Virus record (IMG/VR): IMGVR_UViG_3300045988_001675
Location: 1 to 5,714 of that record
DNA: 5,714 bases
Source: a virus
Direction: 5' to 3' (one strand)
A model generated the notes under the pieces. The model saw nothing but the letters and a program-made list of their open reading frames with translations. It ran no database searches and had not been told where the DNA came from. The position numbers and the translations under genes were made by a program. Shown here in pieces: positions 1,797-5,714 of the stretch. The number at the start of each line of letters is the position of its first letter. Position 1 is the first letter of the stretch.

Positions 1797-2812
1797 GTTG
1801 TTACAAGCCATTAATAAGGCTGTACAACCCGAACGATAAAGACATTAGCGGGAGGGTGTATTCACTCTCCCGCTATTCTCAGTTAGCGGGAAAGCAGCTG
1901 AAATATGAAGATTTGATGTACAGAAAAGATGTCATGTTAATACCATGCGGACAATGCATCGGATGTAGAATCAGACAACGCGAGGACTGGACAACACGCA
2001 TAGAGCTAGAAGCAAGAGATTATCCGAAAGAAGAAGTATGGTTTATTACACTAACCTATAATGACGACAATGTACCGGGTATAATAGTCAAAACAGGGGA
2101 AATAATGCGAAAAGTGCAATACGTCTGGAAGCCGGGTGAGAAGCGTCCTGAAAGCGTCCAAACGTTGCTGTATACTGACGTTCAAAAGTTCTTAAAACGT
2201 CTCAGAAAGGCTTACAGGGGCAAACTACGCTATTTTGTAGCGGGAGAATACGGCGAACAGACAGCAAGGCCGCATTACCACATGATACTATATGGATGGA
2301 GACCGACAGACCTAGAGAATCTATACAAGATACACCACAACGGATACTATACCAGTAAATGGCTAGAAAATCTATGGGACATGGGTCAAATACAGATAGC
2401 GCAAGCAGTGCCAGAAACATATAGATACGTTGCAGGGTATGTAACCAAAAAAATGTATGAAATAGACGGAAAGAAGGGAAATGAATATTATGAACTAGGA
2501 CAACAAAAACCGTTCGCATGTATGAGCCTTAAACCGGGTCTAGGAGATAACTATTACCAAGAGCACAAAGCAGAGATTTGGAAACAAGGCTACATCCAGT
2601 GTACAAACGGAAAACGCGCACAAATACCACGCTATTATGAAAAAATGATGGAAGCTGAAAACCCACAAAGATTATGGAGAATTAAACAGAACAGACAAGC
2701 AGCAGCAATAGACGCAAACCGTAAAAAATACGAAAACACAGACTTTGCAGAACAATGCAAAACGAAAGAAAGAGTAATCAAAAAGCAGATGAAGAAGAGA
2801 GGGACACTTTAA
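1793..2812 (+). CDS. VP4: Rolling-circle replication initiator (Microviridae VP4, phiX174 A analogue; HUH endonuclease)
   Basis: This is a 339-aa ORF with a Cys cluster PCGQCIGCR near the N-terminus. Motif I is FITLTY (aa 84-89). The HUH motif is RPHYHMILYG (H161-Y-H163). The two-tyrosine motif III is YVAGYVTKK (Y212, Y216; compare phiX174 A YVAKYVNK). A SD-like aggtga lies 9 nt upstream of the ATG. Confidence 0.95.
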   Translation: MSCYKPLIRLYNPNDKDISGRVYSLSRYSQLAGKQLKYEDLMYRKDVMLIPCGQCIGCRIRQREDWTTRIELEARDYPKEEVWFITLTYNDDNVPGIIVKTGEIMRKVQYVWKPGEKRPESVQTLLYTDVQKFLKRLRKAYRGKLRYFVAGEYGEQTARPHYHMILYGWRPTDLENLYKIHHNGYYTSKWLENLWDMGQIQIAQAVPETYRYVAGYVTKKMYEIDGKKGNEYYELGQQKPFACMSLKPGLGDNYYQEHKAEIWKQGYIQCTNGKRAQIPRYYEKMMEAENPQRLWRIKQNRQAAAIDANRKKYENTDFAEQCKTKERVIKKQMKKRGTL

Positions 2813-2830
2813 AAGTGTCATGGTGTCACT

Positions 2831-2864
2831 TAGCCCAGTACCTATCAAGTAAGGTACTGGGCTA
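2831..2864 (+). terminator. 13-bp perfect hairpin 19 nt after the Rep stop; candidate terminator or structural element
   Basis: tagcccagtacct (2831-2843) pairs with aggtactgggcta (2852-2864) around the 8-nt loop atcaagta. The following sequence tattagatt is only moderately T-rich, so terminator function is uncertain. Confidence 0.4.
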
Positions 2865-2923
2865 TATTAGATTAAAAGCTCCATGTATCGCTTTATCCAG
2901 TCTATCAAATAGCTATACCTTAT

Positions 2924-2966
2924 CGCGTGTGCACACGCGCACGAAACGCGCACGCGTGCACGCGCG
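2924..2966. repeat. GC-rich imperfect inverted repeat made of two 20-nt perfectly alternating pyrimidine-purine tracts separated by aaa
   Basis: cgcgtgtgcacacgcgcacg (2924-2943) and cgcgcacgcgtgcacgcgcg (2947-2966) can pair over 20 positions: 16 Watson-Crick pairs, 1 G-T and 3 mismatches. The region contains nested perfect palindromes gcgtgtgcacacgc, gcacgcgtgc and gcgtgcacgc. Its composition contrasts sharply with the A-rich remainder of the genome. Confidence 0.75.
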
Positions 2967-3043
2967 GCCTTTTCGGCGCTATAGTTCGCAAGCTCACAAG
3001 CGCCGTATATTATATAAGTTGTTGTAGCCGTAGTAGTAGGAAT

Positions 3044-3218
3044 TGTGGAAAAGTTGATAAGTACTAAAATTTAACGTTAAAACGTAAATAAAAAAGAAAA
3101 AACCATGTTGAAAGTTTTGTTAAAAACTTGTTGAAATGTTAAAAGTTAGTCAAAATGACGAAAAACATTATGCAACATTTTGTGGAAAACCTGTTGAAAC
3201 TGTTGAAACTGTTGAAAA
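3044..3218 (+). repeat. Iteron-like array of about 10 same-orientation TGTTGAAA-type motifs, ending in a 3x tandem 9-mer (ctgttgaaa, 3191-3217)
   Basis: Exact tgttgaaa occurs at 3106, 3129, 3192, 3201 and 3210. The variant tgttaaaa occurs at 3118 and 3137, tgtggaaa at 3044 and 3181, and gttgataa at 3053. All copies are on the + strand in an AT-rich stretch that has no ribosome-binding sites. Confidence 0.8.
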
Positions 3219-3314
3219 CGCGCACGCGCGCAAGGAGTGGATTTAGCCGAGCTCCGCATACGCTACGCACGGCAAGGCGCTAAAGCGCCATTCAAACCAA
3301 AGGAAAAATAAAGC

Positions 3315-3343
3315 TTGACAAAACCAAAAAGGGATAATATAAT
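3315..3343 (+). promoter_or_regulatory. Consensus sigma70-type promoter for the peptidase/late gene block
   Basis: TTGACA (3315-3320), a 17-nt spacer and TATAAT (3338-3343) match the consensus at both hexamers with optimal spacing. This is followed by SD aggag (3364-3368) and ATG at 3377. Confidence 0.8.
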
Positions 3344-3376
3344 CAAAACAGCATAAGACAGAAAGGAGAAAACAGA

Positions 3377-3766
3377 ATGATTACAAGTTACATCGTAGAC
3401 ACAGACGGAAACGAAAAACTTGCAAGACACTTTAAGGTAAAAGAATTTGCTTGCAAAGACGGAAGTCCAATTGTATTCATTGATAACCATCTATACACCA
3501 TTCTAGACATCCTAAGACACGAGCTAGGAAAACCGATCATCATCACCAGCGGATACAGAACGCCAGAGTGGAACGCAAAATGCGGAGGAGCAAAATACAG
3601 CTACCATATGCGCGGTATGGCTGCAGACATCCGAGTCAATGGCATGAGCGCAAAAGCGCTTGCAAACAAACTAAATGAAATTGTACCGGATGAATGCGGA
3701 ATTATCGTATACAATGGCTGGGTGCACTTTGATGTGCGCAAAAGCAAATACAGAAAGGGGGTTTAA
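3377..3766 (+). CDS. Zinc D,D-/L,D-peptidase of the M15 (LAS / Peptidase_M15A-like) family; putative cell-wall hydrolase (endolysin-like)
   Basis: This 129-aa ORF has a strong SD. The motif order is typical of phage/bacterial M15 peptidases: FKVKEFACKDG ... LGKPIIITSGYRTPEWNAKCGGAKYSYHMRGMAAD ... GWVHFDVR. That gives the H-x6-D ... H zinc triad (H77, D84, H117, plus D119). There is no signal peptide or TM segment. Confidence 0.85.
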   Translation: MITSYIVDTDGNEKLARHFKVKEFACKDGSPIVFIDNHLYTILDILRHELGKPIIITSGYRTPEWNAKCGGAKYSYHMRGMAADIRVNGMSAKALANKLNEIVPDECGIIVYNGWVHFDVRKSKYRKGV

Positions 3767-4113: not shown

Positions 4114-4219
4114 AAAGATGAACGGCGCAAAAGACCGCCGTATGTTCAACATAACCGCACGCAAAACCAAAACTATCAACCTCAGTCAAAAGCCTATGCG
4201 CGGCGGCATCCGGCTGTAA
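4097..4219 (+). CDS. Small basic DNA-binding/packaging protein (phiX174 J / gokushovirus ORF8-like), 40 aa
   Basis: Manual translation from ATG 4097 gives MAKHRKKMNGAKDRRMFNITARKTKTINLSQKPMRGGIRL, with TAA at 4217-4219. It is very basic (K/R rich) with a C-terminal PMRGGIRL, which I recognise as typical of the tiny basic proteins of gokushoviruses. It overlaps the 3' end of the 74-aa ORF by 17 nt in another frame. It is below the ORF-track size cut-off. Confidence 0.8.
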   Translation: MAKHRKKMNGAKDRRMFNITARKTKTINLSQKPMRGGIRL

Positions 4220-4236
4220 AAGAAAGGAGCAAAACA

Positions 4237-4476
4237 ATGGGACACAACTACTACGGAATCTGGGATAACGTGGCAAAGTGCTACGCATGGGTAGGCGAAA
4301 GCAAGAACAACGCCACCTTTGCACGTATGTGCAACGTGATGGCAAAAGACGAAAAGACCTTCATCGGGCAGAGTCCGCAGGACTACACCGGCTTTAAGCT
4401 GGCAGTCTTCGAAGACGAAATCGGCACGTTCACGAACGACACAGAGAAGGTATGGGAGGGCAAGCCGAATGAATAA
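4237..4476 (+). CDS. VP5-like non-structural protein (79 aa), putative role in ssDNA synthesis/packaging
   Basis: SD aaggag sits 7 nt upstream of the ATG. The pattern YGIWDNVAKCY...NNATFARMC...SPQDYTGFKLAVFEDEIGTF resembles the conserved layout of gokushovirus VP5 proteins (x-D-x-K-A-x-x-Y ... A-x-R-x-F ... P-E-D-(F/Y) ... G-x-F-D-x-x-x-G). The assignment is from memory of the family, not from a search. Confidence 0.6.
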   Translation: MGHNYYGIWDNVAKCYAWVGESKNNATFARMCNVMAKDEKTFIGQSPQDYTGFKLAVFEDEIGTFTNDTEKVWEGKPNE

Positions 4477-4879: not shown

Positions 4880-5714
4880 ACAGAAACAACGAAAGGCACT
4901 TTCTGAACGTACCACAGATGCACACCAGCAGAACACGTTTCAATCGTGACCAAACGATTCTTACCACGTTCGACAGCGGAGCACTAATTCCATTCTTTGT
5001 AGACGAAGTATTACCGGGCGACACCTTCCAAGTGAATACAAGTGCTATCATCCGTATGAGTACGCCAAAATATCCGGTTATGGATGACGCATTCATTGAC
5101 TTCTACTATTTCTACTGTCCAAACAGGATCATCTGGGATGACTTCAAAAAGTTCATGGGAGAAGCAGATGAAACGCCTTGGGAACCCAACAAGACGTATA
5201 AAGTGCCACAAATCCAGCTTGGAACCGGAGAAAAAGACGGATTAGCACAACCGTACGAAGGAAGCGTGCTTGACTATATGGGAGTGCCTACAAAAAGCAT
5301 ACCATCCGGAACTAAAGCGGAAAAAGTCAACGCACTGCCGGTAAGAGCATATGTAAAAATCTGGAATGAATATTTCAGGGATCAAAACGTAGACAATCCG
5401 GCAACGCTGAGAACGAACAGCGAGGACATCGATTACGGTGACCGTGCCGACAGCACGAGCTTAGAATTGGGCTGGGCAACAGCATACAGCGGTGGCAGAT
5501 GCCTACCGGTAAACAAATTCCACGACTATTTCACAAGCTGTTTGCCATATCCACAGCGAGGACCGGAAATTAAATTGCCGATATCAGGAAATGCAGCAGT
5601 AAGAGGATATAAAGACTTGAATTACAAAAATGTAATCCAAGCAAACGTCATACCCGTAATCAACGGAGCGATAACAGAAGAAGCAGAAGTAAGCGTAACA
5701 CCAAATTACGCAGA
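4876..5714 (+). CDS. VP1: Major capsid protein (Microviridae VP1 / F-family), N-terminal part; 3'-partial in the window and continues at 1..872
   Basis: ATG at 4876 is preceded by aggagg (4860-4865). No stop occurs before the window end, which is why it is absent from the ORF track. The translation MNRNNERHFLNVPQMHTSRTRFNRDQTILTTFDSGALIPFFVDEVLPGDTFQVNTSAIIRMSTPKYPVMDDAFIDFYYFYCPNRIIWDDF...ALPVRAYVKIWNEYFRDQNV... is an unmistakable microvirus capsid N-terminus. Confidence 0.95.
   Translation, partial: MNRNNERHFLNVPQMHTSRTRFNRDQTILTTFDSGALIPFFVDEVLPGDTFQVNTSAIIRMSTPKYPVMDDAFIDFYYFYCPNRIIWDDFKKFMGEADETPWEPNKTYKVPQIQLGTGEKDGLAQPYEGSVLDYMGVPTKSIPSGTKAEKVNALPVRAYVKIWNEYFRDQNVDNPATLRTNSEDIDYGDRADSTSLELGWATAYSGGRCLPVNKFHDYFTSCLPYPQRGPEIKLPISGNAAVRGYKDLNYKNVIQANVIPVINGAITEEAEVSVTPNYA
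5660..5714. repeat. Right copy of the exact 55-nt terminal duplication (identical to 1..55)
   Basis: A base-by-base match to 1..55. The capsid reading frame is preserved through the junction. Confidence 0.95.

Follow-up and report, generated by a model that had tools for sequence, protein, structure and literature searches.

The complementary-strand origins of the Bullavirinae are the n′/PriA primosome site in phiX174 and a primase origin with three hairpins in G4. Gokushoviruses count among the commonest ssDNA phages of animal guts, and to our knowledge their cis-acting replication signals are essentially uncharacterised. In supercoiled plasmids, alternating (CG)n and (CA·TG)n inserts form Z-DNA, and anti-Z antibody sites have been mapped on the phiX174 replicative form. 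We know of no single-strand origin (sso) that is made of strictly alternating purine-pyrimidine sequence. Rolling-circle replication, whose general background is available elsewhere (PMC5714925), involves in Firmicutes plasmids such as pMV158/pLS1 and pE194 sso elements (ssoA and ssoU types) that are non-coding and rich in hairpins (PMC5714925, PMC4598088).

The locus described here, a pair of alternating pyrimidine-purine (YR) tracts in a gokushovirus, resembles these elements in its non-coding, hairpin-rich character, in its place beside the Rep gene and the double-strand origin, in being modular and exchangeable between replicons, in its orientation, fixed relative to the displaced strand, and in being dispensable, for sso at a cost. 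It differs from ssoA, an imperfect palindrome of ~150-200 nt with the RS_B (TTATGCCGAGAAAATTT) and CS-6 (TAGCGT) motifs (PMC4598088). Neither motif lies within the tracts at 2924-2966; an RS_B-like TTTAGCCGAG (8/10) occurs 276 nt downstream of them, and TAGCGT is found on the - strand only, near 3256-3261. The Bullavirinae origins belong to the same virus family and are likewise intergenic hairpins of the packaged strand, recognised by host priming enzymes (see also PMC5714925), and the three hairpins of G4 have a counterpart in relatives of class C, where the YR hairpin closes a row of three; unlike the tract pair, which is missing in close relatives, they are fixed, and the two share no sequence similarity. 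We suggest by analogy that the tract pair may work like an sso or the phiX174-G4 origin hairpins; it is likened to these families and not placed in them, because their defining motifs are absent.

Two further comparisons bear on the duplex form. Like the Z-DNA-forming inserts, the tracts show strict alternation, CG, CA and TG steps, lengths of 20 + 20 bp and a transition predicted at physiological to purified supercoiling, but they are natural, conserved in evolution and arranged as an inverted pair with covarying arms. As an inverted repeat rich in GC that lies near iterons, within the control region of a replicon with an HUH Rep, the pair also recalls the pT181 IR-II cruciform, hairpin I of pMV158 and the CRESS-DNA stem-loops; unlike in Rep nick-site hairpins, its loop is too short and too variable for a nick motif, for which a neighbouring stem-loop at 2823-2864 fits better.

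Results

Genome context

The window, meaning the whole 5,714-nt stretch of DNA analysed here, is a circular assembly because its ends carry an exact 55-nt terminal direct repeat (1-55 = 5660-5714), and represents a complete gokushovirus (Microviridae) genome with 5,659 unique nt. All its long ORFs lie on the + strand: in the ORF list they include VP1, which spans the genome ends, VP2 (912-1796), VP4/Rep (1793-2812) and a gene at 3377-3766 annotated as peptidase M15 in GenBank relatives. The sole long non-coding region, 564 nt at 2813-3376, holds the tract pair. The coding strand shows a strong base skew (A 37.8%, T 18.2% over the whole window; A 46%, G 25%, T 15%, C 14% at 4-fold sites), opposite to that of the phiX174 and M13 virion strands, which are T-rich. 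Coding DNA is depleted in GGCC (1 observed vs 8.7 expected) and GATC (5 vs 13.8), which suggests restriction avoidance.

The tract pair

Arm 1 (2924-2943, CGCGTGTGCACACGCGCACG) and arm 2 (2947-2966, CGCGCACGCGTGCACGCGCG) are each a (YR)10 tract, and flank an A-rich spacer, AAA (2944-2946), which would be the loop of a hairpin. Five CG, three CA and two TG steps make up arm 1, seven CG, two CA and one TG arm 2, and the four mismatches between the arms are all of transition type on the + strand, one T·G and three A·C. The preliminary description, which had reported two strict tracts complementary at 16 of 20 positions, was exact in coordinates and sequence; its nested palindromes, put at 10-14 nt, stood in broad terms, with arm 1 holding a perfect one of 16 nt (2924-2939). 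The shorter tract that it had placed beyond the iterons is present on the + strand as a 15-nt run at 3218-3232 (ACGCGCACGCGCGCA), at the right boundary of the iteron cassette. This third tract is a direct repeat of 2944-2960, matching at 16/17 positions; in most relatives the site reads ACGCGCACAGCGC, and alternation there is not strict.

The tract pair is non-random. The three longest YR runs of the 5,659-nt genome measure 21, 20 and 15 nt. Over 1,000 genomes simulated under a first-order Markov model, the longest run averaged 13.2 ± 1.9 nt and was at least 20 nt in 0.8% of cases, and the second-longest was never above 17. The CpG density of the genome peaks at the tract pair.

Conservation and distribution

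A search based on VP4 returned 80 related viral contigs (designated by L numbers below), which with the window form a clade of 81 genomes. The tract pair occurs in 69 of the 81, the window included, with arms of 16-28 nt lying 110-180 nt past VP4 and with alternation kept in all 69 genomes; most of the remaining 12 are truncated contigs. Relatives carry spacer variants of 0-5 nt (none, A, AA, AAA, ATA, GTA or AAAAC). The pair is also found in GenBank gokushoviruses from human, pig and raccoon faeces, deposited by different laboratories. Divergent versions are present in GenBank records and in dozens of assemblies made independently, which excludes an assembly or amplification artefact, a concern raised beforehand. 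The expectation that homologous genomes would carry an equivalent structure was borne out by this clade and the GenBank records, but not throughout: L001, whose VP4 is the nearest to that of the window (95% identity), and L019 lack the pair, as do about two-thirds of the genomes of a second VP4 clade, in which only about a third have it. Most of arm 1 is lost in L048, and arm 2 is broken in L011. The tract pair is dispensable, since it is missing in L001 and L019 and partly deleted in L048 and L011. In the unusually long contig L017 (IMGVR_UViG_3300045988_086966, 8,781 nt), unrelated sequence from ~4120-4400 onwards stands in place of the tracts and the cassette, which could be due to an insertion or to an assembly that is chimeric or concatemeric.

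A full-text literature search returned nothing on such tracts in Microviridae, no plasmid homologue of the control region was found, and an Rfam scan of the window gave only a sub-threshold chance match at 1843-1911, outside the tracts. In searches of bacterial genomes for a host or prophage, a 19-mer of the cassette gave chance matches only and a 22-mer of the tract matched GC-rich genomes only; tract 20-22-mers are widespread in unrelated GC-rich phages and bacteria. Several GC-rich (~60%) viral contigs of 11-36 kb (L087, L099, L104, L105, L108, L119, L124, L125, L133, L153, L177, L183, L185), all but one from a single human-gut dataset, carry the exact 20-mer CGCGTGCGCGCGTGCGCGCG, the reverse complement of the common arm 2. 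It sits there at a conserved intergenic spot, apparently after a stop codon (...TAAGGAAT-tract-ACATTACTTG...). Because the motif is generic in GC-rich DNA, we draw no inference from its occurrence in these ~30-kb gut phages, and the sharing may be coincidence.

Alternation and pairing

In an alignment of 55 genomes, 30 of the 40 arm columns (75%) are variable. The ratio of transition-only to transversion-containing columns is 24:6 in the arms; for the cassette it is 36:75, and for the left flank 28:56. The six transversion-containing arm columns are attributed, putatively, to phase shifts between length classes. Alternation is thus conserved while the sequence drifts, since arm columns vary mostly by transitions only.

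To compare pairing, 40 distinct arm pairs were aligned on their centres, with the natural spacers swapped for AAAA, which gave 800 pair cells. Standard pairs filled 80.0% of the cells in register, compared with 78.0 ± 0.4 in shuffled pairs and with 68.6% and 74.3% when the arms were slid by two. Watson-Crick pairs filled 77.6% of the cells across relatives, the window itself having 16/20 around its 3-nt spacer. A·C mismatches on the + strand occupied 20% of the cells, and some are nearly fixed: 32 of the 40 sequences have C·A at pair 15-30. Changes on both sides of a pair filled 31 cells; shuffles gave 14.7 ± 3, and the two slid registers 13 and 5. Such changes affect 10 of the 20 pairs and are all transitions, and the effect is modest, in sequences that are related to one another. 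These cells answer the earlier question of whether compensatory changes keep the hairpin in relatives: some changes are compensated, one of them in the window itself (G10-C34 to A10-T34). The arm covariation score reached 0.140, against 0.104 in the control. None of the 800 cells holds a compensated transversion, which the neighbouring hairpins do have. Alternation breaks number 0, compared with mismatches in 20% of the pair cells: arm pairing matters somewhat, alternation more.

CpG methylation followed by deamination was considered as a source of the transitions-only pattern and set aside, 5mC deamination being no easy cause because coding DNA is not depleted in CpG (observed/expected 1.02). 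A restriction-site decoy was also rejected, CGCG and GCGC not being notably avoided elsewhere in the genome.

Folding and supercoiling

The hairpin that had been proposed for the packaged strand forms in silico, as ssDNA, with -17.4 kcal/mol on the + strand, but this energy is not beyond that of dinucleotide shuffles (z = -1.46), 17 of 200 of which fold as well. The - strand reaches -20.6 kcal/mol (z = -2.19 against such shuffles). Against shuffles that preserve alternation and steps, a control of little power since CG-rich YR pairs all fold well, the mean z over 51 distinct tract pairs of relatives was +0.15 for the + strand (+0.58 in the window) and -1.14 for the - strand. The - strand was the more stable in 50 of the 51 pairs, because mismatches on the + strand are A·C (160 cells) and seldom G·T (19 cells). 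This asymmetry needs no special cause, since the A:T ratio of the tracts, ~3.2:1, matches the 3.0:1 at 4-fold sites (A 0.46, T 0.15), and a hairpin of the - strand or of an antisense RNA was discarded as unnecessary on the same grounds. The whole 564-nt intergenic region is significantly structured (z = -3.75), and its centroid fold keeps four hairpins, the YR hairpin among them.

The proneness of the tracts to Z-DNA or cruciforms, asserted earlier from composition, agrees with rough estimates made with literature parameters, which predict a transition at sigma ~-0.04: in a two-state calculation each arm would pass from B to Z at sigma ~-0.036 to -0.040 and both at ~-0.042, and a cruciform would extrude at ~-0.04 to -0.06 at this circle size.

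Neighbouring stem-loops and promoter

A GTGTCAC box with a perfect 13-bp stem-loop (2823-2864, + strand, loop ATCAAGTA) follows VP4. Every related genome examined has both the box, as GTGTCA(C/A), and the stem-loop, without exception on the gene strand; they sit immediately past VP4 in the window clade and immediately ahead of it in the second clade. The stems covary and are fully different between lineages, and the loop core is conserved. This stem-loop is likely a better candidate for the Rep origin than the tract pair. As to the Rep signal first proposed, a nick-hairpin role of the tract pair is unlikely, the loop of 0-5 nt being A-rich and variable, and the pair was rejected as an HUH nick site since such a loop holds no conserved nick motif. 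The complement of the 2823-2864 loop reads TACTTGATA; the phiX174 origin is nicked at AACTTG^ATA, which this sequence resembles, but it lies on the strand opposite the genes.

Directly after the tracts stands a further + strand hairpin (2974-3005; stem CGGCGCT/AGCGCCG, 18-nt loop), with compensatory changes in L045 and L064 (GGCACT/AGTGCC) and in L039 (AACGCT/AGCGTT); it is limited to the window-like class A and deleted in L020. In class C relatives (L005, L007, L012, L014 and others), two hairpins, hp1 and hp2, precede the YR pair (consensus ...CCCCTTGCGnCnnGCGCCCC...GGGGCTGnCGCT), and both show Watson-Crick covariation; the window has neither. The second clade has the same arrangement, for example in L085 (5290-5385) and L245 (1000-1045), and the order hp1-hp2-YR and its gene-strand orientation are constant even where the cassette is inverted. 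The identity of this order in two VP4 clades suggests a three-hairpin module gained and lost as a unit.

Beyond the third tract, a conserved block (3233-3305) keeps its orientation even when the cassette is inverted. It contains the RS_B-like sequence noted above at 3242-3251, an 8/10 match to the ssoA motif TTATGCCGAG, and a small hairpin, GGCGC-TAAA-GCGCC, at 3276-3289. Ahead of the 3377-3766 gene lies a perfect 12/12 sigma-70-type promoter (3315-3343; TTGACA, 17-nt spacer, TATAAT), which, with strong Shine-Dalgarno-like AAAGGAG sites, one of them before that gene, hints at a Firmicutes-like host.

The iteron cassette

The AT-rich cassette of ~210 nt (3006-3217, + strand) contains TATATTATATAAGTTGTTG and about ten repeats of the TGTTGAAA type; it is conserved across many gut gokushoviruses, with TATATTATATAAC/GTTGTTG and the same ~ten repeats, and it is common to ~50 GenBank records and 67 of the 80 contigs. 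The tract pair always accompanies it and may adjoin either of its ends; in the window, YR tracts bracket the cassette. The window clade has the cassette downstream of VP4, inverted relative to VP4 in six contigs (L004, L019, L030, L033, L046, L061), and the second clade (L082, L084, L085; L230-L277) has it always inverted, between VP2 and VP4. Since inverted copies are more divergent (72-79% identity vs 80-91% for forward copies), the inversions appear old and stable; their junctions do not fall cleanly within the tracts. Control of the packaged strand, and with it of base skew, by cassette orientation was rejected, AT and GC skews showing no difference between inverted and forward genomes. 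A dif/Xer site at 3006-3020 was likewise dismissed, its resemblance being weak when judged by eye (for context, PMC7062461).

Discussion

Within the replication-control region, the tract pair is probably a DNA-structure element, optional and not an essential signal. As to its nature, we tentatively favour a dispensable non-B-DNA element that would be a hairpin in ssDNA and Z-DNA- or cruciform-prone in the replicative form, comparable to an accessory single-strand-origin module. Selection or a homogenising process would keep two inverted blocks, one on each side of a short A-rich spacer, strictly alternating and rich in CpG. In the single-stranded genome the arms would snap into a GC hairpin of ~20 bp in almost any register, and this hairpin is the one structure to be expected directly from the sequence and the life cycle. 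It could serve as a stable duplex landmark that resists single-strand-binding protein and aids the conversion of ssDNA to the replicative form, a role that we infer from the sso/ssi modules of rolling-circle plasmids and phiX174/G4-type phages, which are modular and of help but can be dispensed with. Once in the supercoiled replicative form, this sequence would be prone to Z-DNA or cruciforms and probably also a recombination hotspot. The patchy presence of the tracts (L001, L019, L048, L011 and the second clade) fits the behaviour of sso elements. Priming at the hairpin by host primase or RNA polymerase, as put forward in the preliminary description, is plausible, any priming role being one deduced by analogy; neither promoter-like hexamers nor primase-site evidence was found in the tracts. 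A hairpin alone needs no alternation, yet the tracts lack compensated transversions, which speaks against this reading.

The readings considered here are not mutually exclusive, and we rank them in the order sso-like hairpin, Z-DNA, simple repeat, protein site and RNA or coding element. The strictness of alternation relative to pairing, with only transitions and no compensated transversions, is what an element acting at the duplex level would predict, and it is possible, if on the whole unlikely, that a Z-DNA (or B-Z/cruciform) element tunes melting of the origin and iterons or the promoter at 3315-3343. One or both tracts would then flip to the left-handed form in the 5.7-kb replicative form and absorb ~4-9 superhelical turns. 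The dominance of CG, CA and TG steps and the uninterrupted alternation of 20 + 20 nt (a length of at least ~12 bp being the criterion) agree with this, as do the estimated B-to-Z thresholds; a flexible position, on either side of the cassette and beside a stem-loop, would suit a global supercoil sink, and the undepleted CpG of coding DNA leaves 5mC deamination a poor source of the transitions. Z-DNA requires, however, neither inverted symmetry nor two blocks, yet arm covariation exceeds controls; moreover, the tracts are out of phase across the spacer, the genome encodes no bacterial or phage Z-DNA reader, and the threshold would lie at the upper edge of in vivo unconstrained supercoiling. The variation in arm length (16-28 nt) and spacer length (0-5 nt) and the deletions within or across the tracts in L048, L011, L020 and L001 could instead reflect a recombinogenic simple repeat with no dedicated function, an explanation we regard as doubtful. 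Here a self-complementary CG microsatellite, purified by slippage or template switching, would persist at module boundaries through recombination that shuffles, inverts and deletes the cassette. Left- and right-flank classes have indeed been recombined on either side of the tracts, and the classes come out mixed when genomes are ranked by VP4 similarity; CG-rich YR sequence lies on both sides of a cassette that is inverted in six contigs, and the 20-22-mers look like a generic low-complexity motif of GC-rich phages and bacteria. Yet a capsid-limited genome of 5.7 kb retains these ~43 nt in ~90% of the clade and in diverged lineages, and the half-decayed copies with transversions that neutrality predicts were not seen; the greater divergence of inverted cassettes makes inversion old and rare, not ongoing, and its junctions are not cleanly inside the tracts. 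It is less likely still that the quasi-palindromes combine both properties, as functional non-B-DNA switches gating the origin or promoter and as crossover points that invert or relocate the cassette independently of enzymes; if so, they would explain why lineages differ in the orientation of the cassette and in the side of the Rep gene on which it lies.

The near-invariance of arm 2 in classes A and B (GCGCGCACGCGCGCACGCGCG), the recurrence of the same core at 3216-3232 and the inverted symmetry could also betray a duplex site bound by a protein that is dimeric or recognises repeats, be it VP4/Rep itself or a host factor. Candidate motifs would be the GCGCAC/CGCGCAC repeats, of which three are direct and one is inverted, along with a further copy in the third tract. 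We consider such a site improbable: overall, 75% of the columns in the arms are variable, the sequences of class C and of the second clade are different ones, the motif is of low complexity and ubiquitous in GC-rich genomes, and no candidate binding protein was identified. Most improbable is an RNA-level or coding element, be it a terminator after VP4, an antisense or primer RNA hairpin or translation of the 90-aa ORF at 2755-3027, a reading that is largely refuted. A - sense transcript would pair at 97.6% when G·U pairs are counted with Watson-Crick pairs, and the ORF overlaps the tract, where some GenBank records annotate a 'hypothetical protein'. The scan called no intrinsic terminator on the + strand at 2924-2975 and no - strand promoter was found; no conserved U-run follows the stem, whose 3′ flank is not the same from class to class. 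The excess of A·C over G·T mirrors the genome-wide A:T bias, there is no Rfam match, and coding of the ORF is excluded by indels that are not multiples of three and by the complete absence of the tracts in L001.

The non-coding region of these viruses can be mapped in three parts: the GTGTCAC stem-loop, which is universal and the candidate for the Rep origin; a set of hairpins around the YR pair, which is optional and the candidate for a complementary-strand or non-B-DNA element; and an iteron cassette of variable orientation. The YR pair is linked to the cassette and to other, genuine hairpins. The conservation of alternation above base pairing is unusual. A functional YR pair would give a bacterial virus a Z-DNA- or cruciform-prone element that occurs naturally and is maintained by evolution; should the pair be a recombinogenic repeat and nothing more, it would still explain the modular shuffling of gokushovirus control regions.
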